Virus genome (UHGV): UHGV-0372926
Length of the DNA: 41,206 nt
From: a virus
Strand: one strand, 5' to 3'
A program made the translations under genes and the position numbers. Position 1 is the stretch's first letter. Each line of letters starts with the position of its first letter. Of this stretch, positions 9,139 to 22,460 are shown piece by piece. The notes beneath the pieces are model-generated. The model saw only the letters and a list, made by a program, of their open reading frames with translations. It was not told the DNA's origin and searched no databases.

Positions 9139-9167
9139 TTGCAATATGTATGAGGCAATATTATAGT
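9139..9167 (+). promoter_or_regulatory. Sigma70-like promoter: -35 TTGCAA (9139-9144), 17 nt spacer, -10 TATAGT (9162-9167); GTTGGTTGC at 9134-9142
   Basis: Nearly identical to the promoter at 33751-33784 (atgttggTTGCAAtat...atatTATAGTtag). Confidence 0.55.
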
Positions 9168-9198
9168 TAGGAAACCAACAACGAGAAGGGGTGTAATT

Positions 9199-9351
9199 AT
9201 GAACATAGCCACTAAATACCGAAAATCCGGAAAGGTTGACCTGCGCCGCTTGAGGCGGTGCGCGCGAAGATTGAAGGCCGCATATTTTAAGCTCGACTTA
9301 GGTCGCAACGAAAACTGGATAACGAAGGCTGAACGGAGATTCGACCGATGA
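9199..9351 (+). CDS. Small basic protein (50 aa), encoded antisense between Rz1 and the scaffold gene
   Basis: MNIATKYRKSGKVDLRRLRRCARRLKAAYFKLDLGRNENWITKAERRFDR, with a GAAGGGG RBS. It is below the 60-aa cutoff of the ORF track. Confidence 0.45.
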   Translation: MNIATKYRKSGKVDLRRLRRCARRLKAAYFKLDLGRNENWITKAERRFDR

Positions 9352-9488
9352 AACCAATGGCAAAGCGTAACCCGACGAAGTACCAGCAACGGCGCCGGGT
9401 ATTTCTGGTCTATCTTCCGGTAGCGTGGGTGGCTATAGCCTTCGTCTGCTGGGGCCTGGCCTGGCTGATAAAAAACGCCCCGTTATAG
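9348..9488 (+). CDS. Small tail-anchored membrane protein (46 aa)
   Basis: MKPMAKRNPTKYQQRRRVFLVYLPVAWVAIAFVCWGLAWLIKNAPL. Its start overlaps the previous stop in an ATGA arrangement, and the terminator hairpin follows. Confidence 0.45.
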   Translation: MKPMAKRNPTKYQQRRRVFLVYLPVAWVAIAFVCWGLAWLIKNAPL

Positions 9489-9495
9489 GGGCGTT
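9474..9495. terminator. Hairpin AACGCCCC-gttata-GGGGCGTT; followed by TTTTTTAT on the minus strand (after Rz1) and a weaker U-tract on the plus strand
   Basis: An 8-bp perfect stem. The Rz1 stop codon (9483-9485) lies in the loop. Confidence 0.6.
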
Positions 9496-9731
9496 GTTAC
9501 ATTCCGGATCCAGTCCTGCAGCTGGTACACCTGTAGCCTTAACTTTCTCCCGCAATCCATGTTCTGCACGTCCGCATTGAGATCCGCGTCACTGTCCTTT
9601 TCCGCCGGCTGAAACTGGCACGGCTTCGCCATCATAGCCGGGGATGGCGTTGGCGTTATCGATGGCGCGTTGTTTAATCCGCACCCGCTCATCGTCAAAA
9701 CTACAGCGCACACGATCAGGATTTTGCACAT
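9483..9731 (-). CDS. Rz1-like outer-membrane lipoprotein spanin (o-spanin)
   Basis: MCKILIVCAVVLTMSGCGLNN has a signal peptide plus an LTMSGC lipobox. The mature part is Pro-rich. Its start lies inside the Rz gene in another frame and it extends beyond the Rz stop. Confidence 0.7.
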   Translation of the reverse strand: MCKILIVCAVVLTMSGCGLNNAPSITPTPSPAMMAKPCQFQPAEKDSDADLNADVQNMDCGRKLRLQVYQLQDWIRNVTTPL

Positions 9732-9978
9732 ATTTAACCACCTCTCGGGTTATCACTACGGTTTTCGCGGCGCCGGCCTGTTCGGCTTCGGCGGCCTTCG
9801 TATCGTTTACCTGCTGCGCGGTTACCCGTTTCGCCAGTGTCGCCCGGGCCTTTTCTTCCTGCTGGGCTACCAGCTTCGCGCGGCCCTCATTCCAGCCGTT
9901 CCTGTACTGCCATTGGCCGTAAATAAACGCAACCAATAACCCGATACTAAGCGCTATACAGATATTTTTCAGCCCCAT
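9589..9978 (-). CDS. Rz-like inner-membrane spanin (i-spanin); start at the internal Met MGLKNICIALSIGLLVAFIYG
   Basis: An N-terminal TM helix followed by a coiled-coil periplasmic domain. It overlaps Rz1. Confidence 0.7.
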   Translation of the reverse strand: MGLKNICIALSIGLLVAFIYGQWQYRNGWNEGRAKLVAQQEEKARATLAKRVTAQQVNDTKAAEAEQAGAAKTVVITREVVKYVQNPDRVRCSFDDERVRIKQRAIDNANAIPGYDGEAVPVSAGGKGQ

Positions 9979-10004
9979 CGCTCCACCTTTACATTGCTGC
10001 CGTT

Positions 10005-10262
10005 GACTTCTCGCAAAATAAATGATACGATCAGCTTCGCTTTTGTGCGACGCCTCGCAAAGGCAGGCGCGCAACAAGCAATTGAAGTGATCGATTCAGC
10101 CCACCTCGTTATAACTCCTTGATTTTACTCACTTAATTTCGCCACTCGCAAACTAAAACGGCAGCAACCAACGAAATTAGCCTAAGTCCTTGATATTTAT
10201 ACTCGCAATTTGACTCGCAAAATTTTGCGAGTCTTGCGCGTCGCCGATACACGTAATTTATT
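10005..10262. repeat. Iteron-rich non-coding region A, homologous to region B (19890-20162)
   Basis: It shares the blocks ctcgcaaaa-atgatacgatca, gcgacgcc, gtgatcga and tactcgcaatttNNNtcgcaaaattttgcgagtcttgcg...acacgta..ttacgagtt with region B. It holds at least 7 copies of CTCGCAA/TTGCGAG and the palindrome cgcaaaattttgcg. Confidence 0.7.
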
Positions 10263-11310
10263 ACGAGTTCCCGGACAGGAATTTTGCAACGCGTTTATCG
10301 TTCTCCGCCATCTCGCGCAGGGTCAGCGGCCGGCCAAAGCCATCGACCGACGCAGCCCGGAATTCCTCTGCCGTCATACCGCTGTTACGGAAAATATTAC
10401 CCCTGACCGGGCCGAGCGCCTCATCCTGGAACCATGCCGGCTGCATCTGCAGGAATTCGTAGTATGACGTGTCGGCGTCTACCTGCGTGCCTCCGTCGGC
10501 CCCTCGGGCCGCCCGCTTCCCGCCGACGTCAAGGAAGTCGAAATCGCTGCTGATCACCGGCGCGGTGGTCGTCCTGCAGTTCGGATGCAGCGGCGGCAGC
10601 GGCCCCTTGCCGACATCGTAAACCTTGCCATGCGCCAGGTTCCGGCAAATCGACGAGGTGCGCTTGTCCAGGGTCACTACCAGCTCGTAGCCTTCCACGA
10701 TATCGTCGTTTTTCTGATATACGAGGTTTTTCGCTTCGGTCGATACATGGTTGATCGCGGTTCTAACCACCGTTGCCGCGTTGCGGTTTGACACGTCCGC
10801 CAGCCCGCCCGGGCCGACTACCTGGCGCACGATGTCGCGCGTCGTCATTCCCCGCACGAAGCCAGATTTAACGCCGGTCACCAGGCGGTTAATCTCGGTA
10901 TCCTGCCAGCTGGTTAGCATGTCCTGGAAGTCTACCGGCTTACCTTCCAGCTGCAGCGGATTGAACTTAATGGCGGACCAGACTTGCTCGGGCGACGGAG
11001 CGGTGAAACTGGCGTTGACGTTTCCGGACAGTGTGTCCGTCGTCCAGTTGGTCTCGTACTCGGCCAGCTTCTGCAGGTCCTGCTGTAAGCGTTCCTCCCA
11101 GCCGCTGGAGATTGCGTATAGGATGTCCTCCAGGTCCTTTAGCATGGCCTGCAGACGACCGCGGGTGCGGCTCTCGTCCCCGAAGGCCAGCACCTTCTGT
11201 TTTACCTCGTCGCGCATCTGCTGGATGAACGGCTCCAGCTCGTTCACCTCATGCGAGGCGTTACGCTGGAGCCAGATCTGGTGGCTAATAAAGGCCGTTA
11301 AGACACTCAT
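10261..11310 (-). CDS. Phage Mu F-like / SPP1 gp7-like minor head (head morphogenesis) protein
   Basis: 349 aa placed after the portal gene, as is typical for this family. Confidence 0.65.
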   Translation of the reverse strand: MSVLTAFISHQIWLQRNASHEVNELEPFIQQMRDEVKQKVLAFGDESRTRGRLQAMLKDLEDILYAISSGWEERLQQDLQKLAEYETNWTTDTLSGNVNASFTAPSPEQVWSAIKFNPLQLEGKPVDFQDMLTSWQDTEINRLVTGVKSGFVRGMTTRDIVRQVVGPGGLADVSNRNAATVVRTAINHVSTEAKNLVYQKNDDIVEGYELVVTLDKRTSSICRNLAHGKVYDVGKGPLPPLHPNCRTTTAPVISSDFDFLDVGGKRAARGADGGTQVDADTSYYEFLQMQPAWFQDEALGPVRGNIFRNSGMTAEEFRAASVDGFGRPLTLREMAENDKRVAKFLSGNS

Positions 11311-11386
11311 GCGCCCACCAACACTATCGCCAAAAGAACAATGGTTATGACGGCAGGAACTATAAGCACCACGTTAATCAAATGGG

Positions 11387-12883
11387 TCATTGTGCCTCCC
11401 CTTGCTGCTGCATATTAGCTGCCGATGGGATATCGCCGGTAACCGTCGTCGCCGTTCCGCGCGACGCGATCGGCTGGTCCGCGATGGCGTTCTGAATCTG
11501 TTCGTTAGTCCAGTTGGTAACCCCGGCCTCGCGCAGCGCCTCATAGTACGCCGTAGCGGGCAGATAACCGGCGTTAATGTCGGATACCCATGCGGCGCGA
11601 TCCTGCGCGGTCATCGACTTGAGGAAGAATTCCATATTCAGCTTAAACTCGATCTCCGATCCGTCAACGTTAAGCATATCGGCAACCCATTTAAGAGCGC
11701 TGGTGTACGCCTGGCTAACGTTACGCGCGATAGTAGCCATAACCGATGTATCCGCACCACGCTGGATGCGGGCGGCCTCCGCAGTTACCTGCACCGTCGG
11801 CATGATCAGCTGGGCTCCGATCTGCACGGCCTGCTGTTCCTTGTCCAGCATGTTCTGCTTGGCGAGGTTATTTTCCGCTGCCTGGATTAAATCCGCGGTA
11901 CCGCCGGCACCGATATTATGCCCTGTACGAGAGCCCATCTTAACACCGTTGGGGTTAGCCGCTTTGTATTGATCCGCGCTAAAATTCTCGCCCGGGCTAA
12001 TGAACAGGGTCGGCTGGCCGACAACAAAACTTGACTCTTCGTTATCCGCGCTGTTCCGGAAGTGTCCGATGTTCAGTTCCGCAAGCGGCAGCATTGGTGG
12101 GTCGTCGGGCGTATGATCGTTATTCGTTGCCCCGATAAAGGTAAACGGGATCATGCCTTTCAGATTGTCGCCGAGTTGTGGGTAAATGGTCTCTACTGGC
12201 TCCGCGTCGCCGCCTTCTGCTTTGAATTTATACAGCCGCTGCCGGTAGTTATTTTCGCTATCAATGTCGAGGACACGATATTGCTCTCCATACTGGATGT
12301 CGAACTCGTCGCCGGGAGATGAATACTCCCATACCTCGCGCAGTACGATCAGCGACACCCGGTTTACCGACCCTACCCGGGTCAGACGCCAGTTAACGAT
12401 ATTTTCGGCGGTATAGAAAACGATGACCGGGTTTAATAATCCCTCGTTTTGCTCCGCCATAGTCGCCGCGCCTGTCGGCGGGGCGTCCACTAGCAGCCCA
12501 CCGCGGCCAATGGAATCAATCTCCATAAGCGTGTCCTGGGCGTGCTGCCAAAGACCGACACCGGAGCCGTCGCAATTATCCTTGAGGTATTCAAGTTCTT
12601 TCGGGATCGTCTGCTCCGGGTCTTTGCGCATCACGCTTCCGACCATGCCTGATAGCGTCCGCTTAGTGAAGTTGTAGCAGATCGCCCCTTCTTCATACTC
12701 ACGCTGCCGTAGCTCGCCGTAAGACTTGTCTGCTTCATTCTTGCCTACGTTGCGCAGGTACCGCTTTAGGTCTCCCGCGATTGCATGGCGGACCTTTTCC
12801 CATTTCGGGAAATACGCCTTGTAGTCCCGGTGGGTGGTCTTTACGTTCTGCCCCGCACCGGCGGTAATATTTTCGCTGATCAT
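11387..12883 (-). CDS. Portal protein
   Basis: 498 aa lying between the large terminase and the head morphogenesis gene. Confidence 0.7.
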   Translation of the reverse strand: MISENITAGAGQNVKTTHRDYKAYFPKWEKVRHAIAGDLKRYLRNVGKNEADKSYGELRQREYEEGAICYNFTKRTLSGMVGSVMRKDPEQTIPKELEYLKDNCDGSGVGLWQHAQDTLMEIDSIGRGGLLVDAPPTGAATMAEQNEGLLNPVIVFYTAENIVNWRLTRVGSVNRVSLIVLREVWEYSSPGDEFDIQYGEQYRVLDIDSENNYRQRLYKFKAEGGDAEPVETIYPQLGDNLKGMIPFTFIGATNNDHTPDDPPMLPLAELNIGHFRNSADNEESSFVVGQPTLFISPGENFSADQYKAANPNGVKMGSRTGHNIGAGGTADLIQAAENNLAKQNMLDKEQQAVQIGAQLIMPTVQVTAEAARIQRGADTSVMATIARNVSQAYTSALKWVADMLNVDGSEIEFKLNMEFFLKSMTAQDRAAWVSDINAGYLPATAYYEALREAGVTNWTNEQIQNAIADQPIASRGTATTVTGDIPSAANMQQQGEAQ

Positions 12884-12895
12884 AGTGTCCTCGTC

Positions 12896-14242
12896 TTAAA
12901 GCGGGAAATAAACCGGGATATTGATAACAGGCTTCACGATCGGCATCTCGTATGCAATCGGGTAGCCAGTGGCGTCGTTCTGGTGGTCGTTGTTCCCTGA
13001 TTTATCAGGTACACCATTTTTATCATAGGCCTGCTGCTCTAAGCATCTAGCGGTAACAGGACACGCTTGCTCGTTTATCAGGAGCCTACCAGATTCAAAG
13101 GCTTTATTCACGGATGCTACCCGGTCTTTTACCGCAGGGTTGGCCACATTCGCGCGCACTTCAAATCTTGCTTGTTCCAGCTGGGCAATATCCGATCTCG
13201 ATGCATCCTGTGATTTTCGGTTCTTTCCGCTGGCGTCGGGATACATGACAATATGGTGGCCGGCATTCTGCCAGCGCTCCTTGATCGTGCGCACTATGTC
13301 AGGGGTGTCGAACATATCCACCAGTTCCGCCACCGCGTGCCATACGTGGCCGCGCTGCACGTAGACTGTAGAGGCCATATGCCCTACGTTAAAGTCCTGG
13401 CCTATGTACAGCGTTTCGCCGGGCTGGATAGTCTCGCGGCTACTGCACTTGTTGCGCTTATACGCATAGTAAACGGTTCCGGAAGTCAGGTTGACGAATT
13501 CACCGTTAATGTAGGCCTCTATCAGCTGCTCCGGGTAGGTGGCCCGCAACGATTCTACGTAATCCTCTGGCAAAAACGGATTGGATAGGGTGGAGGCCTG
13601 AATCATGTCATAACCCGGCATCTTGTTAACCACCCAGCGATCGTGAACGAACCGGAAACCTTCCGGCGTGGTGAATATCGAGACGGTGTTAATTGGCTTC
13701 GGTGACGACGCTACATAGGTATCGGGCCGTTGGCGATTACGCGCGATAATCTTATTCCAGGCGTCGGCAGCATGTTCCATTTTAAGGGTGTCCAGTTCGT
13801 CGACCTTGGCCCGAAAAGATTCATACCCCACTATGCGCGCCGGGTTATCGAGGGTACGCAATACAAAATCCCCCAGCTGCCGGTTGCTGGTGTAAATGAT
13901 GTTGTCGGATTTATTGTAGCGGTATCGGACGCCCCATTCCTGCAGCTTTTCCTCCATGCGTGGGGCCAGAATAAGGCGCACCAGGTCATAGGTCGGTTCG
14001 TACATGGCAATCATCGACGACGCACCGCCTTCCAGGCTGTCAAGCAACGCAGAATTGCACATCACCTCGGATTTACCCGTGCCGAAGCCCGCCACGAAAG
14101 CCGGGAATTTACAATGCATGTTGAGGAATGCCGCCTGCGGCTCAGTCGCCTTTATGCTTATTTGCACCGACGACCTCCACGACGACTTTCTGGATAGGCT
14201 GATCTTCTTTCGGGTCTTCGACCGCCGGCTCGCGCATACCAT
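12896..14242 (-). CDS. Terminase large subunit
   Basis: Walker A motif ...FVAGFGTGKSEV... The ATPase N-domain and nuclease C-domain are about the expected 448 aa length. The N-terminus overlaps the TerS frame by about 100 nt, so the true start is uncertain. Confidence 0.8.
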   Translation of the reverse strand: MVCASRRSKTRKKISLSRKSSWRSSVQISIKATEPQAAFLNMHCKFPAFVAGFGTGKSEVMCNSALLDSLEGGASSMIAMYEPTYDLVRLILAPRMEEKLQEWGVRYRYNKSDNIIYTSNRQLGDFVLRTLDNPARIVGYESFRAKVDELDTLKMEHAADAWNKIIARNRQRPDTYVASSPKPINTVSIFTTPEGFRFVHDRWVVNKMPGYDMIQASTLSNPFLPEDYVESLRATYPEQLIEAYINGEFVNLTSGTVYYAYKRNKCSSRETIQPGETLYIGQDFNVGHMASTVYVQRGHVWHAVAELVDMFDTPDIVRTIKERWQNAGHHIVMYPDASGKNRKSQDASRSDIAQLEQARFEVRANVANPAVKDRVASVNKAFESGRLLINEQACPVTARCLEQQAYDKNGVPDKSGNNDHQNDATGYPIAYEMPIVKPVINIPVYFPL

Positions 14243-14672
14243 GGTTGCATTTCAGGATGAAGGCCGCGCCGTTACCGCCTACACCGGCGGCGGACAGCTC
14301 CATGAGGAAAGCTTTCTGCAGCGATTCGGCGTCGGCGTATGCGCGGTCCCATTCCGGCCAGTGCTCGCGCCAGTTGCGCAGCGTGTCACGGTTGACTCCG
14401 ATCGACGCGGCGAAGCGCTCGAACGTCGGCAGCTTGCTTTGCGGGATCACCTGCGCGGTGCCTTTATCCGTGTAGTGGATAATCCACGACGCCGGCTCGG
14501 AGAAATAGCGCAGCAGTGCGCCGCAGTATTCCGGGCGGTAGTCGGTCGGTTTATCGTTGCCGCCGATGTCGTGCGGAAAGCGCTCGCCTTTCTTCCGTTT
14601 CGGCGGTACTCCCCTTAGATGTTTCGGCTTCGGCTTTAGATTCATATAACCCCCATTATGCTTGCGTACCAT
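14142..14672 (-). CDS. Terminase small subunit
   Basis: 176 aa basic/acidic protein directly upstream of TerL. Confidence 0.5.
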   Translation of the reverse strand: MVRKHNGGYMNLKPKPKHLRGVPPKRKKGERFPHDIGGNDKPTDYRPEYCGALLRYFSEPASWIIHYTDKGTAQVIPQSKLPTFERFAASIGVNRDTLRNWREHWPEWDRAYADAESLQKAFLMELSAAGVGGNGAAFILKCNHGMREPAVEDPKEDQPIQKVVVEVVGANKHKGD

Positions 14673-14723
14673 ACGCGCGCACCAGCGGCCCCCAGGGCCA
14701 CGTTAAGGGGATTATATAGCGGT

Positions 14724-14751
14724 GGTGAGGATTAGGCAAAAGAAGCCCGCA
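14724..14751 (-). terminator. Intrinsic terminator for the minus strand: GCCCGC-acggag-GCGGGC followed by TTCTTTTGCC
   Basis: Downstream of the 14770 gene stop and upstream of the small terminase gene. A TATATAAT-like element follows at about 14690-14700 on the minus strand, a candidate late promoter. Confidence 0.5.
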
Positions 14752-14769
14752 CGGAGGCGGGCAGGTTGG

Positions 14770-15345
14770 TTATTTTGCTGGGCAAGATGGTTTAGGCATC
14801 CAATGTGTTACGTCTTCCAGCACTACACGATCGAAGGGGTCGTATCCGTCTTCCGAGAATCCGTCTTCCGAAAAATACAAAACACGGTCGACTACACATA
14901 CGCCATTTAGGCAAATGATAACGTCCTCGCCATTATCAGGAAGCCGCTCGCTTACCGGAATCCATCCCTGGTTTTTCGACAGGGAATTGCCAACCTGGTT
15001 TATGGCGCCTTCGTAGGCTTCTTTCATAGCATCGCGCACCCATCCTTGCGGTTTTTGGTTTGTTTTAACACACCATTCATCAAACGTAAGAACCGGCGCT
15101 GGCTGCGCATGTGGGTAAAGCTTCGTTCCTGGCTCCAGCGGACATAGCATCCTGATGGATGGGCCAAGAGCGGCGCATATCCCTACATTCGTCACCTGAT
15201 ACACCTCCGCAACCGGCTCGGCCTCCATCGTCGCCAGAAGCATCTTATACGCGGCAAGGGTGTAATCCTCTTTCAGCGACCTCGCGCCAGATTCCAGCTC
15301 GGCGATACGGGCGGCGAGTGATTCTTTAGTAACGGTAGTTGTCAT
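14770..15345 (-). CDS. DUF551-like protein
   Basis: C-terminal ...DVTHWMPKPSCP matches the DUF551 THWMPLP signature. Start at MTTTVTKESL with an ATGA overlap. Confidence 0.4.
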   Translation of the reverse strand: MTTTVTKESLAARIAELESGARSLKEDYTLAAYKMLLATMEAEPVAEVYQVTNVGICAALGPSIRMLCPLEPGTKLYPHAQPAPVLTFDEWCVKTNQKPQGWVRDAMKEAYEGAINQVGNSLSKNQGWIPVSERLPDNGEDVIICLNGVCVVDRVLYFSEDGFSEDGYDPFDRVVLEDVTHWMPKPSCPAK

Positions 15346-15545
15346 AATGCCCGCTCCTTCCCACACTTCATGCACTGCAAAACTGGCACGTCATGCTCGT
15401 CGAAAAACTCCATGTATTCATGCGCGCACTTATTCAGGTTGCTCCGGTTCACCAGCTCGCGGCGGTGCTCCTGGGCTACGATTAGCGCCGCCTCCAGTTC
15501 TGCGATCTTGGCGTCGGCCTTCTTTATTTGCTCGTCGATTGTCAT
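15342..15545 (-). CDS. Small zinc-finger protein (C-x2-C...C-x2-C)
   Basis: 67 aa with a coiled-coil N-terminus and CMKCGKERAL at the C-terminus. Confidence 0.4.
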   Translation of the reverse strand: MTIDEQIKKADAKIAELEAALIVAQEHRRELVNRSNLNKCAHEYMEFFDEHDVPVLQCMKCGKERAL

Positions 15546-15967
15546 TGCGATTTTTCCTCTGCGAAATAGGCCAGCGCCAGGAGAAAGGCGCGCTGGGACT
15601 GCGGGTTTTTAAGCAGGCCGAAGCGGTGGCGGATGGTCGCCAGGTGCCGATCGAACGAATCGCGGCACCCCTCCTCGTCGGCCATCTGCACAACGGCAAC
15701 GAGTAACGCTTCGTGCTCCTCCTGCAATTCCTCCTCGCTGTACAGCACATCGTCAGCTGCCGTTATCGGCTCGTATTCTTGGACTACGGAAAACTCGGCA
15801 TCTTCCAGGCGCTCGGTACGGTAGCCGCCGTTATGCGTCTCTACGACCCACGACCAAACACCAAAGGCCCCACCACTATCGTCTGTTACGCGCATGTTTT
15901 CGTCTACTTCGTATTCACGGCCGACGGTGAACCAGGATACTTTTGACGCGGTGCAAATCAGTTTCAT
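15542..15967 (-). CDS. Hypothetical early protein
   Basis: 141 aa, with start and stop coupled to both neighbours. Confidence 0.4.
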   Translation of the reverse strand: MKLICTASKVSWFTVGREYEVDENMRVTDDSGGAFGVWSWVVETHNGGYRTERLEDAEFSVVQEYEPITAADDVLYSEEELQEEHEALLVAVVQMADEEGCRDSFDRHLATIRHRFGLLKNPQSQRAFLLALAYFAEEKSQ

Positions 15968-16182
15968 TTAGAACCACCTTTTTTCAGCAGTTCGCCACAC
16001 TCACGGCAATATTTATCCCACGCATCTGCCTGTCGGTGTTGGCATTTGGATGTATCCCACCCGCATATGCCGCAAATGCTGTTACTTTTACCATCGTAAA
16101 CACGCCCGCCATCGTGTTTACAATATGCCTGGAAACGGCGCTCCAGGTCTTCATATGTTGGTTTTACTAATTCATTAGCCAT
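15964..16182 (-). CDS. Small Cys-rich (zinc-ribbon-like) protein; start at MANELVKPT with an AGGAG RBS
   Basis: Contains CGICGWDTSKCQHRQ...CRECG. It is the first gene after the promoter at 16214-16242. Confidence 0.4.
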   Translation of the reverse strand: MANELVKPTYEDLERRFQAYCKHDGGRVYDGKSNSICGICGWDTSKCQHRQADAWDKYCRECGELLKKGGSK

Positions 16183-16213
16183 TCCGATTGCTCCTGTGTA
16201 GTTGACGATATGA

Positions 16214-16242
16214 GTATAATCATATTGCAACCAACATTGCAA
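16214..16242 (-). promoter_or_regulatory. Sigma70-like promoter on the minus strand: -35 TTGCAA (c16237-16242), 17 nt spacer with GTTGGTTGC (c16227-16235), -10 TTATAC (c16214-16219)
   Basis: The minus strand reads cTTGCAAtgttggttgcaatatgaTTATACtcat. Confidence 0.5.
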
Positions 16243-16250
16243 GTAGCGCG

Positions 16251-16284
16251 CAAAGAAAAAGCCCCAGCTGTTAAGCCAGGGCTT
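16251..16284 (-). terminator. Intrinsic terminator after the endolysin gene: AAGCCC...GGGCTT hairpin plus TTTTTCTTT on the minus strand
   Basis: A 6-bp stem with a 14-nt loop, so a weak to moderate terminator. Confidence 0.4.
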
Positions 16285-16330
16285 TCGGACCGTCAGGAGC
16301 AAATCAATCGTGTGCAATGAGACTATAGCA

Positions 16331-16825
16331 CTACTTCACGGCCCTGCCAATAGCCTCGGCCTCGGCTGCCGATTTGCCGTTGAACAGCGCAAGACGTCCG
16401 GTTGCGCGCCGGCGTAGCCCCAGCATCACCTTACCGCCCTGATAGATGAATTGCGGCAACTTGGCGCGCAGCGTCGCGATGTCGCCACGGCGCAGCGCCT
16501 TGCCGGTGCCCGTATCGGCGCCGATCACTTTCGGCCCGGCATTGAATACCAGGTCCACCATAGCGTCGAAGTATGGGCCAGTGACCAGCGGATGCGCCAC
16601 CGCGTCGACCTGGCGCTCGGCCTCTGCCATATCCTGGCGCAGTAACGCCAGTGCATTCGGTTCGGTGATGCTCGCCGGCGCCTGGGCTCGCGTACCTGTA
16701 TGGCCGTAACCCCAGGTCAGGATCCCGCGGGCCTTTTCTTTGGCGGTTGCGTAATACGGCACAGGTTTAAACGTCTCCCAGCGCCGGGCGAATTCAACGG
16801 CGTTATCGCTGACTGTTCTTCGCAT
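16331..16825 (-). CDS. Endolysin, GH24 (T4/lambda R21-type) lysozyme
   Basis: ...ILTWGYGHTG... resembles the TIGIGHT block of the lysozyme family. It has no N-terminal TM helix, so it is not a SAR endolysin. Confidence 0.65.
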   Translation of the reverse strand: MRRTVSDNAVEFARRWETFKPVPYYATAKEKARGILTWGYGHTGTRAQAPASITEPNALALLRQDMAEAERQVDAVAHPLVTGPYFDAMVDLVFNAGPKVIGADTGTGKALRRGDIATLRAKLPQFIYQGGKVMLGLRRRATGRLALFNGKSAAEAEAIGRAVK

Positions 16826-17087
16826 GGATCAATCTCCGATACTTGATGTAGCGCACCGACTTAACGCAGGCGCTGCGCAGAAATGAAAGGGTGACCAGCA
16901 CAAGGAGTGTTGACCAGATGAATAACGGCGCGCTGCCGTCTTTGTAGATATGAATCAGCCCGGCGCCGCAGGTGAGAAACAGGCCCATGAACACCAGGCG
17001 GCCCAGCAGGCCGTCGTCGACCCAGTGGGCGTAAATGTTAAACAGCGCGGTTGCGGCGATAACGGAAAGGCAGAAGGCACTAAGCAT
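16803..17087 (-). CDS. Holin/antiholin-like membrane protein (3 predicted TM helices, charged C-terminus)
   Basis: 94 aa, hydrophobic, lying between the holin and the endolysin. Confidence 0.5.
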   Translation of the reverse strand: MLSAFCLSVIAATALFNIYAHWVDDGLLGRLVFMGLFLTCGAGLIHIYKDGSAPLFIWSTLLVLVTLSFLRSACVKSVRYIKYRRLIHAKNSQR

Positions 17088-17089
17088 GG

Positions 17090-17371
17090 CTATTTACCCC
17101 ACGGTAGTTTAAAGCTGCTCGCCGCCACTTCCAGGGCCTCAAAGAATTTCCACCAGAAGGCGCCGATCACGAAAGGCACCAGGTATTGCCCGTCGGTGTC
17201 CGCCAGCTCGAAATAGCGGATCCCAAACGGTGAGAAGTAAACGGCACAAGCGGCACCGGCGGCCAGGTGTGCGCAGCGCTTCCACAACGGTAGCTGCTCT
17301 GCTTTCTTCACCTGGGCCACGATGCCGCCGCATACGGCAGCGACGACAAGCCAGAAATATCTGTCCATCAA
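17090..17371 (-). CDS. Holin (class I-like, 3 TM helices)
   Basis: 93 aa: MMDRYFWLVVAAVCGGIVAQV...CAHLAAGAACAVYFSPFGI...LVPFVIGAFWWKFF. Confidence 0.55.
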   Translation of the reverse strand: MMDRYFWLVVAAVCGGIVAQVKKAEQLPLWKRCAHLAAGAACAVYFSPFGIRYFELADTDGQYLVPFVIGAFWWKFFEALEVAASSFKLPWGK

Positions 17372-17434
17372 AAAGGACCCCCGAATGAATAGTATTCGGG
17401 GGCAGTATAGGGCGATTTAGGATTAATCTGCAAA

Positions 17435-17815
17435 TTACCAGTTTGTGTAAAGGCGACGTGACGGTTTATTTGGGATATCGCTGTACCCACGTTTACGCCA
17501 CAACATATAAATCCTGCGGGCGATCACTGCGCGGGCCTTTGACGAGAATAATCCGATCACTATCTTCTTCGTTCCGTCGTAAAAATACGCGTCCCATCCC
17601 CAGCTTCTCCCGCAGAATGATACGCCTGGCACGTGATCACCATGGCGCATCCGGCGCGCTTTAACCGGCGGCTTAGTCCTGGCGAATGTGCGCGGCTCCG
17701 GCTGTTTTATATTCGGTGCCTCCTTCGGCTCGCTGGGCCTTGGCGCCCGGCGCGCTTTCGGTGGAGGGTTTGCGATCTCCTCCGCGCGTTTCAGGATATC
17801 TGTTGCAAGACTCAT
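17435..17815 (-). CDS. AP2-domain DNA-binding protein
   Basis: ...HVPGVSFCGRSWGWDAYFYDGTKKIVIGLFSSKARAVIARRIYMLWRKRGY fits the AP2/ERF-like domain pattern (GV.....W.A......K..LG.F...E.A..A). Confidence 0.5.
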   Translation of the reverse strand: MSLATDILKRAEEIANPPPKARRAPRPSEPKEAPNIKQPEPRTFARTKPPVKARRMRHGDHVPGVSFCGRSWGWDAYFYDGTKKIVIGLFSSKARAVIARRIYMLWRKRGYSDIPNKPSRRLYTNW

Positions 17816-18252: not shown

Positions 18253-18474
18253 TTACTTGGCCTCCACCTTGATGCCAGCGGCGATGATAGCATCGTGCAC
18301 GTCGTCGCGGGCATAATAATCACCGTTATGGTCGTAATGGGCATGAGCGCTACAATAAGAGCCTCCCTCAATGCTCATCGCCATAGGAAGATTAACGGTG
18401 CGGGACTCCAGATCGGCGATGCGCGCCTGCAGCTCGGCACGCGTTGCGGTGAATACGTTGAATTCGGCCATCAT
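18253..18474 (-). CDS. Hypothetical small protein
   Basis: 73 aa, coupled to its neighbours. Confidence 0.35.
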   Translation of the reverse strand: MMAEFNVFTATRAELQARIADLESRTVNLPMAMSIEGGSYCSAHAHYDHNGDYYARDDVHDAIIAAGIKVEAK

Positions 18475-19662: not shown

Positions 19663-19842
19663 TTACTCTCTTTTGGTTGCTTTTCTCTTCGCAACCAATT
19701 TCGATTTACTAAGGCGTTTTGTCTCCCGGGATTTCATGCTGCTAATATATCGAGTTAACCAAACCTCGACACCCAATCCGCACTGTTCAGCCCTCTGTGA
19801 AATGTATTCGTATGCTTTGTCTGACACTGTTATTTGTTTCAT
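19663..19842 (-). CDS. Possible ribbon-helix-helix-like small DNA-binding protein (59 aa, below the ORF-track cutoff)
   Basis: MKQITVSDKAYEYISQRAEQCGLGVEVWLTRYISSMKSRETKRLSKSKLVAKRKATKRE has a beta-strand then helix pattern. The RBS is GAGG. The last codons overlap the TTGGTTGC/GCAACCAA inverted repeat. Confidence 0.3.
   Translation of the reverse strand: MKQITVSDKAYEYISQRAEQCGLGVEVWLTRYISSMKSRETKRLSKSKLVAKRKATKRE
19672..19709 (+). other. Inverted repeat TTGGTTGC-N10-GCAACCAA followed by TTTCGATTT, a hairpin built from two copies of the recurrent motif that could terminate plus-strand transcription
   Basis: An 8-bp perfect stem located 125 nt downstream of the motif copy at 19538-19546. Confidence 0.4.
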
Positions 19843-19889: not shown

Positions 19890-20162
19890 TTGCAAACTCG
19901 CAAAAAATATGATACGATCACTGCGTTCTCTTGGCGACGCCCGCCAAAGGGCAGCTCGCCTGAGACGCAATAACGTGATCGACTCACTTTGCGAAACAAA
20001 ATCCCTCCATAAATCAATCACTTACCTACCGACTCGCAATCCATTTTTGCGAAAACCAACAAAAACACCCTAAGTCATTGAAAACGTTACTCGCAATTTC
20101 ATTCGCAAAATTTTGCGAGTCTTGCGAGTCGATTCGCATTACTCGCAACACGTATTATTTTA
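19890..20162. repeat. Iteron-rich non-coding region B, homologous to region A (10005-10262), abutting the 3' end of the primase-helicase gene
   Basis: At least 8 copies of (A/T)CTCGCAA or its complement, the palindrome cgcaaaattttgcg, and block-by-block similarity to region A. Confidence 0.7.
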
Positions 20163-22460
20163 CGAGTTTAAGTCCTCATCACTTGCAACCAATTCCGGCG
20201 GGTCAAAGTCGTTCACACCAGTCGGCAGCCTGTATTGTTGGTTGTAAACTTCGCCGGTATCAGGGTTGCGTCCATGCACTAAAACCCGTCGTCGCACTAA
20301 TTCCTCCAGCACTTTTTTATAGTTGCCGCTGGTGAACTTGTTTCCGCCGGCGGTGCCGATCGCATACGGTGAGTACCCCTCGGGCTTGTCCTCCAGCAGT
20401 TCGAGTTGGGCGACCATCACCTCTTCGGCCTTGTTCTTCGGCCCTGCTCCGCCGGAGGTTTTCACAACCTCCCGGGCTACTTCGGCAGCTGGCGATTCGA
20501 ACGGCGCCAGGGCGACCGGTACCAGGTACAGCGTTTCATCGCGTGGCGACATCTCCAGCGGTTTCGGCGTCCAGCCGGACAGCTGATCGGAAAAGTCCGG
20601 GCCGGCGGCGGTGGACAGATACGCGTCGACGCGGTCGGCGTGCGCCTGGGGGACGTCGATTTTACATTTCAGCAGGACGAAGCCGCGCGGCGACTGTTTG
20701 ATGCCGTTACGCGCTTTTTCGTGATAGAGATTGATCTGGTGTGGCTTGGTCTCGTCCGGCTGCTCGATGAAGAAGGCGTAATCCACGGCCCCATGTAGCG
20801 CGCCAGAGCCGCGGGCGGTACGCTGGCCTGAGGATGACTTCGCCGGGTGGTGGATAACGCCGGCGCTGCCGCCGGTGGTCTCGGATATCTGTTTCAGCGC
20901 GCGGACGATTTCCCCCATATCGGTTGGCGAGTTCTCGTCGAACGGCTTTTTAGCCGTGCTGCGCATGGCGACGGTCTGGTTAAGCGAGTCGAAAGCCACC
21001 AGGCCGACTGGCGAATCGCCGGCCGCGTCGCGGATAATTTTGCATACCTCTTTCACGCCGCGCGCGTCGGTGATGTCGATCCCCTTATCCTGCAGGTCGA
21101 TGATATGCAGCCAGTCCAGGTCGTCCTGGTACATTTTCTGCAGCGCCTGCTTACGGTGTAGGCTGGTTTCGCCGCCTTCCGCATCGAAATAAAAATTGTG
21201 GGCGCGCACGACACGCCGTCCGCCGAACGGGATCCCGGCGGATATTGCCGCCATCTGGCCCAGGACGAAGAACGATTTACCGATGTTCGACTCGCCGGCG
21301 GCGTACCAGGTCGATTTGAAGTTAACCAGGCCCTCAATGATGGGGTCACGCTTGGTGAAGAGGGTAACCGGGTCGTCGTCCAGGTCCTCGTCGGTACACT
21401 GTCCGGCGGTGGGCCCGTCGAGCGCGGCCATTACCTCGGCCTCATAGACGTGGGTGATCTCCTCTTCCGGTAAATCCGGCAGCAGTTCGGCAATTTGCTT
21501 TTTGCTGATATTGTGGGCTTCCGGCAAATACTGGTCCGGCACGCCGCAAAGGCGCAGCAGCATGTGCTGGTGCGTGTTGTGCTTCCTGCAGTGGTCGTGC
21601 TGGCACGCGAAGCGCACTTCTGGATGCAGGGCGTCGGGCATCATGATCGCTGTGCTGCCGTCTGTCCCGTCGTTGTCGCTGTGCTGGTAGTGGTTCGGGC
21701 ACTGTATGGCGAAGCCACGGCCAGAGGATAACGGTTCGAGGCCCATTTCCCAGCACCATGCGGCGATCGCCTGGCTGTTCTCGCTGGCGTTCTCCAGCGC
21801 TTCGTCGGTCCAGTTGGTTGAGCCCGATTCGTCCGGCACGTCGAACCGGTGGCGCAGGATGCGGCGGACGCTGGCCGGCGTGGCGCGGTGGTCGAGGGTT
21901 TCCGCTTCGATATGCGGGGCGAACATAAGACGGGCGCGCTGGAATGCGGTTTCGTCCATCCCTTTCGCGCCGGTGAGCCCGAGCATATCGATGAATTTGT
22001 GCTGGCACGGCCAGATCTCATCCGCCAGCATCGGCCGGTCTGTCGGGATGAGAAAACGCCAGGAGCGCGACTTAACGCCGCCTTTCAGATCGTGCCGGTC
22101 GCCGCAGGTGGAGTACGCGAAGAAAGTGTATCCTCCATCCTCCAGCGCGCGACGCACCCGGCGGATCTCTTTGCTGGATACTTTGTCGATATCGATAAAC
22201 AGCAGGGACCGTGAAATGACGTTGTTGTTATTGCGCTTGTTGCGCTCGAACTCCGCAGCAACATACGGCAACCGGCCTTTCTTTTCTTCGTAGCGATCTT
22301 CGGTCTCGCTGCCGTCAATGGATACGCCCAGAACAGGGTCGGCGCCGATCTCCAGCAGGTCGTCGATAAACTCATCCCAGGAGGATTCGAAAGCCTTGGG
22401 GCGATTGTCGGTTTTATGCCGGCCGAGAGAATAGGATATTTTTGATTTTAACCGTGGCAT
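20160..22460 (-). CDS. Primase / replicative helicase (N-terminal primase-like region plus an AAA_25/RepA-like P-loop NTPase)
   Basis: 766 aa. The ...WYAAGESNIGKSFFVLGQMAAISAG... motif is of the Walker A / AAA_25 type. It is the largest replication protein and lies next to the iteron region. Confidence 0.6.
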   Translation of the reverse strand: MPRLKSKISYSLGRHKTDNRPKAFESSWDEFIDDLLEIGADPVLGVSIDGSETEDRYEEKKGRLPYVAAEFERNKRNNNNVISRSLLFIDIDKVSSKEIRRVRRALEDGGYTFFAYSTCGDRHDLKGGVKSRSWRFLIPTDRPMLADEIWPCQHKFIDMLGLTGAKGMDETAFQRARLMFAPHIEAETLDHRATPASVRRILRHRFDVPDESGSTNWTDEALENASENSQAIAAWCWEMGLEPLSSGRGFAIQCPNHYQHSDNDGTDGSTAIMMPDALHPEVRFACQHDHCRKHNTHQHMLLRLCGVPDQYLPEAHNISKKQIAELLPDLPEEEITHVYEAEVMAALDGPTAGQCTDEDLDDDPVTLFTKRDPIIEGLVNFKSTWYAAGESNIGKSFFVLGQMAAISAGIPFGGRRVVRAHNFYFDAEGGETSLHRKQALQKMYQDDLDWLHIIDLQDKGIDITDARGVKEVCKIIRDAAGDSPVGLVAFDSLNQTVAMRSTAKKPFDENSPTDMGEIVRALKQISETTGGSAGVIHHPAKSSSGQRTARGSGALHGAVDYAFFIEQPDETKPHQINLYHEKARNGIKQSPRGFVLLKCKIDVPQAHADRVDAYLSTAAGPDFSDQLSGWTPKPLEMSPRDETLYLVPVALAPFESPAAEVAREVVKTSGGAGPKNKAEEVMVAQLELLEDKPEGYSPYAIGTAGGNKFTSGNYKKVLEELVRRRVLVHGRNPDTGEVYNQQYRLPTGVNDFDPPELVASDEDLNS

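Follow-up and report, generated by a model that had tools for sequence, protein, structure and literature searches.

Two homologous non-coding blocks in a siphophage genome

The sequence studied here, UHGV-0372926, comes from a phage that we read as a Klebsiella-type siphophage; the whole stretch of 41,206 nt that was analysed is referred to below as the window. It carries two homologous non-coding blocks of ~280 bp, set 9.9 kb apart as direct repeats in the same orientation (Table 1). Region A sits between a head-morphogenesis gene (Mu-F-like) and the Rz and scaffold genes, and region B adjoins the 3' end of the primase-helicase gene, beginning at that gene's stop codon. Alignment of the two with MAFFT gave a mean column identity of 78% over 336 columns, and when the B region was searched against the window by BLAST its sole match was A (E 2.5e-19, 70% identity over 242 nt). 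Identical runs reach ~30 bp at most, and overall identity is 70-78%. The initial annotation had placed A at 10005-10262 and B at 19890-20162 and had described them as aligning block by block. These coordinates were correct, the quoted blocks were all present and the self-alignment bore out the homology, which at the low-coordinate end reaches slightly further, to TTTACATT at 9988 and 19875. A and B are real, conserved copies of one module.

Both copies follow a common layout, consisting of a four-octamer core, an AT-rich spacer of ~100 bp, an imperfect palindrome of ~75 bp, a promoter-like site and the octamer ACGGCAGC. The minus-strand genes upstream of A and of B both end in ...NS*, as had been described, through AACTCGTAA, which is itself a copy of the repeated octamer with one mismatch, and both regions stop 20-45 nt ahead of a ribosome-binding site and start codon. 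Small ORFs lie inside A (39 aa, 10133-10252) and B (41 aa, 20026-20151); we took them to be non-coding because indels of 1, 2 and 11 nt between A and B cross them. The stretch beside B, described as free of a convincing long ORF, holds a 59-aa ORF with a ribosome-binding site. One GTTGGTTGC motif had been assigned to each region; A holds an exact copy, whereas B has just GTTGGTT.

The promoter-like site runs opposite to the genes. In A it scored 9/12 matches with an upstream TG in a promoter scan and has an octamer (10009-10016) in its spacer, and the same layout recurs on the opposite strand of the B copy of phage VLCpiS11a (TTGCAA-17-TATGCT) and of locus L028 (TTGATT-17-TATGCT). ACGGCAGC is a polar octamer that is over-represented 16-fold genome-wide, and in other lineages it is found roughly 15-45 nt past the palindrome. 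A sigma-70-like promoter and a ribosome-binding site beside each region also fit gene regulation.

Table 1. Positions of the two blocks, their parts and neighbouring genes in the window.
Feature	Position	Strand	Remarks
Region A	9979-10260		non-coding block
ACGGCAGC of A	9996-10003	-	19 nt beyond palindrome, before Rz start codon (9976-9978, -)
Promoter-like site of A	10003-10031	+ (opposite to genes)	TTGACT, 17 bp, TGaTACGAT
Imperfect palindrome of A	10023-10098	.	~76-nt hairpin on either strand; one-mismatch octamer at tip, 10053-10060
AT-rich spacer of A	10099-10200	.	~60% A+T vs 45% for window; octamer 10144-10151; second ACGGCAGC 10158-10165; exact GTTGGTTGC box 10164-10172 (-); CCTAAGTC 10181-10188
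Core array of A	10201-10241	.	four octamers (two direct, two inverted), starts 10201, 10213, 10225, 10234 (one mismatch); spacing 12-12-9; perfect 22-bp palindrome inside, 10212-10233
ACTCGTAA, one-mismatch octamer at A	10261-10268	-	overlaps head-morphogenesis stop codon (gene 10261..11310, -)
59-aa ORF	19663-19842	-	with ribosome-binding site; below B; annotated in phage 37P2
Region B	19843-20159		non-coding block
ACGGCAGC of B	19863-19870	-	39 nt beyond palindrome
Promoter-like site of B	19890-19918	+ (opposite to genes)	TTGCAA, 17 bp, TGaTACGAT, predicted from sequence; octamer 19896-19903 in spacer; -10 in palindrome base
Imperfect palindrome of B	19910-19986	.	~77-nt hairpin on either strand
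AT-rich spacer of B	19987-20088	.	~62% A+T vs 45% for window; candidate unwinding region; octamer 20032-20039; TTCGCAA-type half-sites 19989, 20047; GTTGGTT box 20052-20064; conserved CCTAAGTC 20069-20076
Core array of B	20089-20129	.	four octamers (two direct, two inverted), starts 20089, 20101 (one mismatch), 20113, 20122; spacing 12-12-9; 16-bp palindrome inside, 20103-20118
Outer octamer ACTCGCAA of B	20141-20148	.	
Outer octamer ACTCGTAA of B	20160-20167	-	one mismatch; overlaps primase-helicase stop codon
Primase-helicase gene	20160..22460	-	766 aa; candidate initiator
Coding part for predicted C-terminal winged helix	20223..20432	-	residues ~677-746; proposed octamer-binding domain
HTH_3 protein gene	22526-22762		precedes primase-helicase gene

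The repeats are confined to the two blocks

Of the heptamer CTCGCAA/TTGCGAG the window contains 12 copies, every one of them within A or B and 0 in the other ~40.6 kb. Shuffled sequences led us to expect ~7.7 copies window-wide; what sets the heptamer apart is therefore extreme clustering together with avoidance elsewhere, not a total excess. Perfect copies of the octamer ACTCGCAA behave likewise (10/10 inside A or B). With one mismatch allowed, A and B hold eight octamers each, in keeping with the 7-8 first counted, and a ninth is found near B just within the primase-helicase gene. Copies occur in both orientations and at irregular spacing. The palindrome CGCAAAATTTTGCG, reported for both regions, was recovered at 10216 in A and at 20104 in B, and in A it grows into the perfect 22-mer of the core array. 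The core array of B was unchanged in eight B copies, save for one G-to-A change in locus L015.

The palindrome is under selection for intrastrand pairing

When folded as single-stranded DNA, the B palindrome, which lies ~175 nt past the primase-helicase stop codon, gave -22.3 and -22.4 kcal/mol on its two strands (z -5.3 and -5.6), and the A palindrome gave -21.6 and -20.7 kcal/mol (z -4.7 and -3.5). The base of the hairpin is A+T-rich and broken by an internal loop. Compensatory changes were found in the B palindrome, both between B subtypes and in locus L028; among A orthologues, one pair passes from T-A to C-G through a C/A intermediate. In the alignment of the palindromes 98.7% of cells were paired, against 90.2% in shuffles, and six pairs had changed on both sides where 2.4 were expected. 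The covariation score, for which the formal test took in the outer and apical helices only, was matched by 0/500 shuffles, and slid controls scored near zero; the middles of the A and B hairpins failed joint structural alignment because their stems differ in register. The palindrome is under selection for intrastrand pairing. Across nine sequences, G-U pairs numbered only 6 among ~267 on one strand and 3 among ~266 on its complement, and energies were equal; that both strands fold equally and with almost no G-U fits an element acting at the level of DNA.

Region A is conserved like the replication module

Both copies were present in 8/8 relatives from which both loci were recovered, with positions and orientation unchanged. 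Non-coding region A of the window shares 91% identity with that of VLCpiS11a (95% with phage 37P2), whereas the genes around it reach 78% (Rz), 83% (head-morphogenesis) and 77% (portal); the corresponding values for the replication module are 95% (primase-helicase), 92% (HTH gene) and 90% (B). In its degree of conservation, A matches the replication module and not its neighbour genes. Orthologues of A and of B are 90-98% identical while the paralogues stay at ~75%, which indicates that each copy is under its own purifying selection. In the phage collection the nucleotide relatives of A were 37P2 and VLCpiS11a only, and the plasmid collection held no relative of region B.

Lineage-specific repeats follow the primase-helicase gene

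In Pfam scans the primase-helicase matched the RepA/RecA-type helicase domain AAA_25 (PF13481; E 9.3e-20, residues 362-543) and BT4734-like_N (E 1.5e-5), the latter of which we take to be an AEP-type primase domain, and it matched PHROG 3228, 'replicative helicase-primase', at E 1e-264. An alignment of five lineages revealed a Cys/His-rich segment between the N-terminal and AAA_25 domains, and an acidic tail, DEDLNS, after a C-terminal domain that is confidently predicted to be a winged helix. For this domain AlphaFold2 returned pLDDT values mostly of 80-91, with one 10-residue block at 71, and the order H-(strand)-H-H-strand-strand; its top Foldseek matches were MarR/MepR, linker histone, Fur and a plasmid initiator (4pt7), all of them weak (E 0.04-0.3). 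A sequence search of all solved chains with the primase-helicase yielded nothing at E up to 1.

Two further results concern other proteins encoded around B. The 59-aa ORF was considered as octamer binder and set aside: neither the complete VLCpiS11a genome nor the B2-type contigs contain it, and the genes that follow the equivalent block in other lineages are unrelated to it; searching solved structures with this protein gave nothing useful. Pfam and PHROG scans of ten ORFs near B found no homologue of gp38, gp39 or gp40 of phage SPP1.

In every relative examined, over a range of protein identity from 98% to 45%, an equivalent of B adjoins the 3' end of the primase-helicase gene. That gene is the block's sole conserved neighbour across lineages, and the genes that follow are non-homologous. 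We compared ~40 related loci over the 650 bp past the gene; most lineages, not all, carry 5-7 copies of a lineage-specific 7-8-mer there. The winged helix is the least conserved part of the protein (25-34% identity, compared with 50-80% in the helicase core), and in most lineages among the ~40 loci the type of 7-8-mer shifts together with its helix 3: NYKKVL is paired with CTCGCAA, HYGKTL with TCGCAA, DRYKIL with GGGGAGA, NQRRRAC and NSRRRSL with CGGACAA, RRRPA[LIV] with TCCGACA, NRRPAM with AGGGATA and TSTKAI with GCGGGACA. Shared descent confounds this pairing, since whatever a lineage carries is passed on as a whole. The group with helix 3 GRRPALKAL (L037, L039, L040, L042, L043 and L049) had no clear repeated 7-mer after the gene.

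A second copy of the equivalent block occurs in other lineages as well. All 159 Dhillonvirus records (159/159) contain two copies of their own block, made up of GCGGGACA plus a hairpin, one past the primase-helicase gene and the other ahead of the tape-measure gene, between it and the tail-chaperone gene. In phage Gluttony the two blocks are 87% identical over 175 nt, and eiAU-183 has a partial second copy in the same place before the tape-measure gene. The Dhillonvirus duplication arose independently of that of A and B. FSL SP-031 and phiEap-2, examined as complete genomes, have a single cluster and no second, and in three other lineages no second cluster was found within 10 kb of the head-morphogenesis gene. 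Before Rz, phiEap-2 and SP-031 have a different element of similar layout (repeats plus hairpins), the repeats of which are TTATTCCA; because it differs, the function of a module at this place may be independent of the primase-helicase.

A duplicated putative replication origin

We consider A and B to be one cis-acting DNA module in two copies, with a function in the replication of phage DNA, and put the probability of this at about 55%. Most likely, they constitute a duplicated putative replication origin bound by the phage's own primase-helicase. The origin suggested in the initial annotation is partly supported: it is favoured by the presence of iterons after the gene in most lineages of the family and their shift with helix 3, by the conservation of A and by the duplication in Dhillonvirus. 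From these we infer that the primase-helicase is the probable octamer binder and that replication would start here. On the best reading, drawn by analogy with oriL/oriR of SPP1 and ori/crr of P4, B would be the origin and A a second initiator-binding locus.

The following scheme is proposed. The predicted C-terminal winged helix of the primase-helicase would recognise ACTCGCAA, of which each region offers eight copies, the core presenting two that face two. At B, directly 3' of its own gene, the bound protein would build helicase rings; the ~100-bp AT-rich spacer would then open, and the ~75-bp palindrome could extrude as a hairpin, providing single-stranded DNA for helicase entry and for priming. 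More speculatively, the promoter-like site, with its -10 in the base of the palindrome, may aid the opening. A, 9.9 kb away in the late-gene region and retaining all parts of the module, would be a second locus for the same protein: it could act as a second origin, or as a bound roadblock aiding the switch from circle-to-circle to concatemer replication, as proposed for oriR of SPP1, and a role as an enhancer resembling P4 crr is also possible.

GC skew had been suggested as a means of locating the origin. The cumulative minimum lies at 20473 in the window, ~300 bp within the 3' end of the primase-helicase gene, and likewise in VLCpiS11a, and it does not coincide with the transcription switch. 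In SP-031, however, the minimum fell near B only after detrending, in Gluttony it lay at the transcription switch, and eiAU-183 was uninformative; GC skew is a weak origin marker here.

A wider possibility, which we hold only tentatively and regard as doubtful, is that a self-contained origin module is common to many enterobacterial siphophages (Guernseyvirinae-like, Dhillonvirus, Eiauvirus). It would comprise a fused primase/RepA-type helicase/winged-helix initiator, lineage-specific octamers and a covarying palindrome as site of entry or priming, and on at least two independent occasions would have been copied into the late region, ahead of Rz in this clade and ahead of the tape-measure gene in Dhillonvirus and Eiauvirus, converging on the oriR solution of SPP1. 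Its octamers, two facing two, would resemble the sites in the origins of SV40 and papillomavirus, which assemble double hexamers. If the module is shared in this way, ACGGCAGC could join the replication system, for example as a priming or fork-polarity signal.

Alternative explanations

The strongest competitor, which we nonetheless consider unlikely, is that A and B are transcription-control regions whose octamers are operator or activator sites for a phage DNA-binding protein, the candidates being the HTH_3 protein or, in some genomes, the 59-aa protein encoded after B. Such sites would set the timing of the next gene (Rz after A, small genes after B) or of the opposite-strand promoter-like site. 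The ribosome-binding site and start codon 20-45 nt past each region agree with this, as do the retention in A, B, L028 and the B copy of VLCpiS11a of an opposite-strand promoter-like site whose spacer holds an octamer, the promoter-associated GTTGGTTGC box present in each region in exact or partial form, and the other repeat-rich conserved element before Rz in phiEap-2 and SP-031; the 59-aa ORF is also compatible with a ribbon-helix-helix fold. On the sense strand, however, sigma-70 candidates are weak and unconserved, with a -35 sequence that reads TCGCAC (A), TCGCCA (B) or TTGCCA (B copy of VLCpiS11a), and eight sites per region are many for an operator. Octamers are absent (0) from the early divergent promoter region (22763-23506), the place at which one would expect the HTH protein to control its own gene. 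The gene for the 59-aa protein is a clade-specific insertion, absent from the complete VLCpiS11a genome, which keeps both regions; there, B is followed by 280 bp of non-coding sequence and the next gene has a promoter of its own. Separate control would be unexpected at the place of the second Dhillonvirus copy, between the tail-chaperone and tape-measure genes, and the replication-module-like conservation of A would be left unexplained.

We rate as improbable, and more so than transcriptional control, that the functional unit is an RNA, in which the ~75-nt hairpin and a U-rich run would form a terminator, an attenuator or an RNase III-type processing site, or in which the opposite-strand promoter-like site would give rise to a small antisense RNA starting in the hairpin. 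Compensatory changes in the hairpin are what such an RNA would be expected to show; as RNA the hairpins fold at -33 to -41 kcal/mol (z -4 to -6), the neighbouring promoter-like site is conserved, and on the sense strand the hairpin is followed by UUUAUUUU (A), UAUUUUUU (B) or UUUUAAUU (B copy of VLCpiS11a). In L028, however, the run after the hairpin is A-rich rather than U-rich. A terminator scan called none within A or B (the nearest lies at 9495-9474), and the whole window had no Rfam 15 match at gathering scores, nor did 9400-20400 when E values up to 1 were allowed. The strand asymmetry of an RNA element is absent, with few G-U pairs on either strand and equal energies. The covarying outer stem includes the -10 of the opposite-strand promoter and therefore cannot form in an RNA started there, and the octamer arrays and their exclusivity to A and B would go unexplained.

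That the copies are substrates for recombination or inversion, as the initial annotation had also considered, or a selfish or mobile repeat that does nothing for the phage, we regard as very improbable. Two homologous blocks 9.9 kb apart invite this reading, and such duplications arose more than once in the family. Because A and B are direct repeats, however, recombination between the two would cost the phage its terminase, portal and lysis genes. Their longest identical run is ~30 bp, at 70-78% overall identity; the same positions and orientation are kept in 8/8 relatives with both loci, each copy under its own purifying selection; the alignments revealed no terminal inverted repeats or target duplications, and no copies were found in plasmids. 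The suggestion found no support.

Least probable of all is that A and B are packaging signals for the small terminase: pac-like short repeats do occur in both orientations, and the GATC sites in the outer stem of the palindrome recall P1 pac, but these sites are lost in VLCpiS11a-type B copies (CGATCAC/GTGATCG to TGCTCAC/GTGAGCA), the terminase genes (12896-14672) adjoin neither region, the block always travels with the primase-helicase gene across lineages, and a duplicated packaging signal would be unexpected.

Implications of a probable duplicated origin

Origins are unmapped for these siphophages, among which are many phages of Klebsiella, Salmonella and E. coli that serve in therapy and belong to collections (BASEL among others), and our literature search found no paper on origins or on these repeats in Guernseyvirinae, Dhillonvirus or SO-1. 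If the replication reading is true, origin and initiator specificity would be readable from sequence alone, the octamer being paired with helix 3, and the lineages would provide a natural set of matched initiator/iteron pairs in which to follow the evolution of DNA recognition. A and B would also represent a second, independent case of a two-origin arrangement, so far worked out mainly in SPP1, and the switch to concatemer synthesis at a fork barrier could then be studied in Gram-negative hosts. For phage engineering, A and B would be two non-coding blocks not to be disturbed, and the primase-helicase gene together with region B is a candidate minimal replicon.

Comparison with known replication systems

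Two accounts of phage SPP1 describe two origins of similar build, each having direct repeats together with an AT-rich unwinding element (PMC6316719; PMC3485210), and relate the proposal that gp38 bound at oriR stalls forks and triggers the switch to concatemers (PMC6316719; PMC3485210). One origin is inside the initiator gene; the other belongs to a segment of the late region, comprising genes 8-10 and oriR, that interrupts the order of the morphogenesis genes, and the two are ~13 kb apart (PMC6316719). The window resembles SPP1 in being that of a lytic siphophage of about 41-44 kb with two distant regions of similar build, repeats plus an AT-rich stretch, one at the initiator gene and the other in the late region, where it interrupts the morphogenesis order; its copies are separated by 9.9 kb as against ~13 kb. 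We take SPP1 gene 7 to be Mu-F-like and gene 11 to be the scaffold gene, so that the oriR segment between them would occupy the same interval as A. The replication proteins differ: SPP1 uses gp38, a separate loader and a DnaB-type helicase, whereas the window encodes a single, unrelated primase-helicase-winged-helix protein. SPP1 oriL is inside gene 38, whereas B lies just past a stop codon, and the window has in addition the covarying palindrome of ~75 bp and octamers in both orientations. Function has been demonstrated for SPP1 and is putative for the window.

In satellite phage P4, the winged helix of the alpha protein binds the origin repeats (summarised in PMC4234260). Like P4, the window encodes a single primase-helicase with a C-terminal winged helix, in this case predicted and alike in architecture only, and it has short iterons in both orientations with a second cluster kilobases away (8 + 8, 9.9 kb). 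The P4 repeats are octamers (TGTTCACC) in both orientations, and the second cluster, crr, lies ~4.5 kb away and is needed in cis. The likeness to P4 ori/crr that had been proposed thus holds for initiator architecture, iterons and a distant cluster; it does not extend to the proteins, alpha having a Toprim-type primase and an SF3 helicase whereas the window's protein has a BT4734-like N-terminal domain and AAA_25, with no alpha homology found. Further, P4 is without a long palindrome and its crr consists of little but iterons, whereas A keeps the full module. Because A retains the whole module and lies in the interval of oriR, SPP1 oriL/oriR is a closer analogue than P4 crr.

The plasmid RSF1010 (IncQ) combines iterons, an AT-rich stretch and ssi hairpins for a dedicated primase (summarised in PMC4234260). 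Its oriV is thus comparable in iterons, AT-rich stretch and hairpins, and both systems encode a helicase of the RepA family (AAA_25). RSF1010 RepA is the reference member of the AAA_25 family found in the primase-helicase. RSF1010 employs three proteins (RepA, RepB' and RepC) as against one fusion protein, tandem direct iterons of ~20 bp as against 8-mers in both orientations, and two ssi hairpins on opposite strands of one origin as against one palindrome in each of two copies 9.9 kb apart.

In the archaeal plasmid pRN1 the origin is a stem-loop just downstream of the primase-helicase gene orf904, and integrity of the stem-loop is required; an equivalent has been suggested in Bordetella phage BIP-1 (PMC4234260). 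The window shares with pRN1 the position directly past a gene for a primase-helicase with a C-terminal winged helix (predicted in the window), a long stem-loop past that gene (77 nt with covariation in the window) and a small repressor gene ahead of the replication gene, as is the HTH_3 gene here (PMC4234260). Unlike the window, pRN1 has no iterons, an SF3 helicase and a single copy.

A pair of like kind is annotated in Sodalis phage SO-1 (Dhillonvirus, NC_013600), the GenBank record of which contains repeat_region features named 'Region A' and 'region B', annotated as direct, inverted and palindromic repeats and as similar to each other. One of its blocks lies past the helicase-primase gene, the product of which is a homologue ~48-49% identical to that of the window, and the other lies in the late region; its repeat is GCGGGACA, its second site precedes the tape-measure gene, and nucleotide homology with the window is not detectable. 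Judged by analogy, the arrangement of A and B would be a variant of those known from SPP1 and P4.

Regions A and B are homologous and share a clustered repeat

The window is a siphophage genome whose kin are the Klebsiella phages 37P2 (~90% nucleotide identity over aligned parts) and VLCpiS11a (~82%), both filed by the database under Guernseyvirinae; minus-strand genes occupy the stretch from ~22.76 down to 2.8 kb and everything past 34.3 kb, and those between 23.5 and 34.3 kb are on the plus strand. The initial annotation had described two non-coding regions, A and B, as duplicates, and the duplication is real: they share 78% column identity over ~300 aligned nt, and when region B was searched against the whole window, the sole other match was A (E 2.5e-19). 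All 12 window copies of the heptamer CTCGCAA fall inside A or B, against ~7.7 expected across the window from shuffles, indicating that the motif is both clustered here and avoided elsewhere; the same confinement was seen for perfect copies of the octamer ACTCGCAA (10/10). With one mismatch allowed, A and B hold eight octamers each, a ninth for B falling just within the primase-helicase gene, and AACTCGTAA (..NS*), the common end of both upstream genes, is itself a one-mismatch octamer.

Coordinates of regions A and B and of neighbouring features in the window
Feature	Position	Strand	Remarks
Promoter-like site with the two small ORFs it leads into	9139-9488	+	site: TTGCAA, 17 bp, TATAGT; strong; opposes the surrounding minus-strand genes
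50-aa ORF	9199-9351	+	after the 9139 promoter-like site
46-aa ORF	9348-9488	+	after the 9139 promoter-like site; membrane-spanning look; annotated in 37P2
Terminator	9474-9495		G+C-rich hairpin where the two small ORFs converge on Rz
Rz-like spanin gene	9589..9978		PHROG 2536, E 9e-48
Region A	9979-10260		between head-morphogenesis stop codon and Rz-like spanin start codon
Head-morphogenesis gene	10261..11310		upstream neighbour of region A
Non-coding stretch	19494-19662	-	~170 nt between 59-aa ORF and next promoter (19548-19519, minus strand); conserved with VLCpiS11a (locus L002 4743-5020); may fold
59-aa ORF	19663..19842	-	directly after region B; plausible gene
Region B	19843-20159		between primase-helicase stop codon and 59-aa ORF
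Primase-helicase gene	20160..22460		upstream neighbour of region B
Acidic C-terminus of primase-helicase	20163-20180	-	DEDLNS
HTH_3 protein gene	22526-22762		upstream of the primase-helicase gene

The module has a fixed order of parts

The best available reading of the pair is that it serves as a replication origin, to which we assign a probability of roughly 0.55; B would be the likely origin and A a second binding locus of the SPP1 oriR type. Read along the flanking genes (window minus strand), both regions present identical parts in identical order: an octamer spanning the stop codon; a central set of four octamers spaced 12-12-9, one pair facing the other, which includes a palindrome (a perfect 22-mer in A); a spacer of ~100 bp with 60-62% A+T (window, 45%), in which lie another octamer, a GTTGGTT(GC) box and the conserved GACTTAGG; a 76-77-bp imperfect palindrome; a further octamer; AATGTAAA; ACGGCAGC; and a ribosome-binding site before the next gene. 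The exact copy of GTTGGTTGC earlier ascribed to each region is present in A, but B has GTTGGTT; likewise, the stretch below B, described as lacking a convincing long ORF, contains a plausible 59-aa gene.

The main rival is that A and B are a pair of transcription-control regions, which we consider doubtful. A conserved sigma-70-like site (TTGACT or TTGCAA, 17 bp, TGaTACGAT) lies on the strand opposite to the genes, with an octamer within its spacer and its -10 within the base of the imperfect palindrome, and this layout is kept in the B copy of VLCpiS11a and in a lineage with just 60% identity in the primase-helicase; no comparably conserved promoter was found on the sense strand.

An RNA-level role for the hairpin, the next rival, is less probable still. 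Folding energies of the imperfect palindrome are -33 to -41 kcal/mol for RNA and about -21 to -22 kcal/mol for single-stranded DNA, with z-scores of -3.5 to -5.6, and both strands fold equally well. Its arms change in pairs between subtypes: CGATCAC/GTGATCG becomes TGCTCAC/GTGAGCA, or ATGCTAC/GTAGCAT in locus L028; CTC/GAG becomes CGC/GCG; GGCGA/TCGCC becomes GGCAA/TTGCC; and among A orthologues one T-A pair is replaced by C-G. Over the alignable helices, 98.7% of cells are paired versus 90.2% in shuffles, and six pairs are changed on both sides versus 2.4 expected; none of 500 shuffles attained the covariation score, which was near zero for slid controls. G-U pairs are nearly absent (6 of ~267 on one strand, 3 of ~266 on the other). 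Pairing within a strand is therefore under selection; nothing found indicates RNA as opposed to DNA as the selected strand.

Both regions are conserved in close relatives

Both A and B, directly oriented and unchanged in position, occur in all eight relatives from which both loci were recovered (37P2, VLCpiS11a and six IMG/VR contigs of a single sample; a seventh contig yielded the B locus alone). This constancy renders unlikely the suggestion that the similar copies serve recombination or inversion, and a role as packaging signals is also unlikely. Orthologous regions are 90-98% identical, A and B only ~70-78%. Between the window and VLCpiS11a, non-coding region A is 91% identical, versus 78% for Rz, 83% for the head-morphogenesis gene and 77% for the portal gene, and the replication module is much better conserved, at 95% (primase-helicase), 92% (HTH gene) and 90% (B), so A evolves with the replication genes and apart from its neighbours.

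Iterons and second copies vary across the family

All relatives with a ~45-61% identical primase-helicase have a non-coding gap directly after that gene. Its repeat is GGGGGAGA in FSL SP-031, GCGGGACA in Gluttony (a Dhillonvirus), mainly GCAACCAAC in eiAU-183, TCGCAA in a three-facing-three array in locus L027, and TTCCGCACA in L028, where it is followed by a recognisable palindrome copy, TATCAT, AATGTAAAT and ACGGCAGC. Among 39 IMG/VR loci, most lineages have a 7-mer of their own that occurs five to seven times within 650 bp past the gene, and the type of 7-mer changes along with helix 3 of a winged helix predicted at the primase-helicase C-terminus; the group with GRRPALKAL in helix 3 has no clear repeat there. 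Such an association is what initiator-iteron co-evolution would be expected to produce, although it is confounded by common descent.

Gluttony has two GCGGGACA-plus-hairpin blocks, 87% identical over 175 nt, one after the primase-helicase gene and the other between the tail-chaperone and tape-measure genes; two places were found in 159 of 159 Dhillonvirus records of the phage collection. In GenBank, Sodalis phage SO-1 already has the pair marked as "region A" and "region B", and the available part of the record's text describes mutually similar direct, inverted and palindromic repeats. A partial second copy lies in eiAU-183 at the same place as Gluttony's late-region copy, whereas the complete genomes of FSL SP-031 and phiEap-2, and three further lineages searched within 10 kb of the head-morphogenesis gene, showed one cluster each and no second, so duplication is recurrent but not universal, having landed at differing late-region sites.

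A caution comes from the region before the Rz-like spanin gene in phiEap-2 (locus L068 11780-12152) and FSL SP-031 (L024 25328-25717), a mutually conserved non-coding element. It contains ACGGCA(A/G)C, G+C-rich hairpins over ~130 nt, an AT-rich stretch and, in either orientation, repeats of TTATTCCA. It is laid out as in region A, but its repeats are unlike the iterons that these phages carry behind the primase-helicase gene, which leaves room for a function of the pre-Rz region independent of the primase-helicase.

Candidate binders of the octamer

Three candidates were considered. The 59-aa product, modelled from its single sequence as an extended N-terminus and two helices (pLDDT ~80), fits a ribbon-helix-helix DNA-binding protein, and matched no Pfam or PHROG family. 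Its gene, limited to the window, 37P2 and two IMG/VR contigs, is a clade-specific insertion between B and a conserved MFKKGQ... gene; as the octamer binder it was rejected because VLCpiS11a, whose genome is complete, lacks it and keeps A and B, and because other lineages have unrelated genes after the equivalent block. For the HTH_3 protein, the octamer search of the window gave no octamer near the gene's own promoter region, and the family-wide GTTGGTTGC box is possibly a better-suited target.

The third candidate, the primase-helicase, combines a BT4734-like N-terminal domain with an AAA_25 helicase domain, and its last ~70 structured residues are predicted to form the winged helix (pLDDT mostly 80-91), for which the best fold matches were MarR/MepR, linker histones, Fur and a plasmid initiator, all weak (E 0.04-0.3); this is the least conserved segment of the protein. 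The acidic tail is conserved (elsewhere EDDLEN, DDDLKD or NSDLED) and resembles the partner-contacting acidic C-terminal tails of T7 gp4, T7 gp2.5 and bacterial SSB.

Two other motifs recur. ACGGCAGC/GCTGCCGT has 34 window copies (for example at 1182, 2013, 9996, 10158, 19863, 27185 and 40970) versus 2.1 +/- 1.4 in shuffles, mostly inside genes, and is also present in L002, L024 and L025; its strand bias (22 vs 12 in the window, 25 vs 6 in Gluttony, 14 vs 4 in FSL SP-031) is independent of transcription direction, and several lineages have one copy after each module's palindrome. It has the look of a polar signal, and may be a Chi-like, priming or fork-related site. GTTGGTTGC, often inside ATGTTGGTTGCAATAT, has nine window copies, all intergenic (2498, 9134, 10164, 16227, 19538, 22941, 26256, 30192 and 33751); it overlaps a TTGCAA -35 hexamer, with TATAGT or TATACT 17-18 bp further on, and its GTTGG part can precede or follow the palindromic TTGCAA. 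Similar forms abound in Gluttony (TTGGTTGC, 19 copies), eiAU-183 and L027 (GTTGGCCGC). It is probably a promoter or regulator site common to the family, and possibly the target of the HTH_3 protein.

Comparison with known systems

The pattern described above reaches across a large group of phages and can be tested directly. Homology does not support membership in the SPP1, P4, RSF1010 or pRN1 families. In SPP1, genes 8-10 are flanked by the Mu-F-like gene 7 and the scaffold gene 11, and region A, which we liken to oriR, occupies the same interval as that segment. SPP1 has two origins of similar build, one in its initiator gene and the second in this late-region segment, which breaks the morphogenesis gene order (PMC6316719); the proposal there is that initiator bound at oriR stalls forks and triggers the change to concatemers (PMC6316719; PMC3485210). 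The likeness to P4 raised in the initial annotation is architectural: P4 also pairs a one-protein initiator bearing a winged helix (predicted here) with a second iteron cluster, but the enzyme domains of its initiator are unlike those of the window's primase-helicase, and crr lacks the full module that region A has. RSF1010 has a helicase of the same family. It also joins iterons with hairpins, as the window does, and pRN1 has in common a stem-loop directly after the primase-helicase gene and a small repressor gene before it (PMC4234260). These resemblances are of architecture and probably of mechanism.
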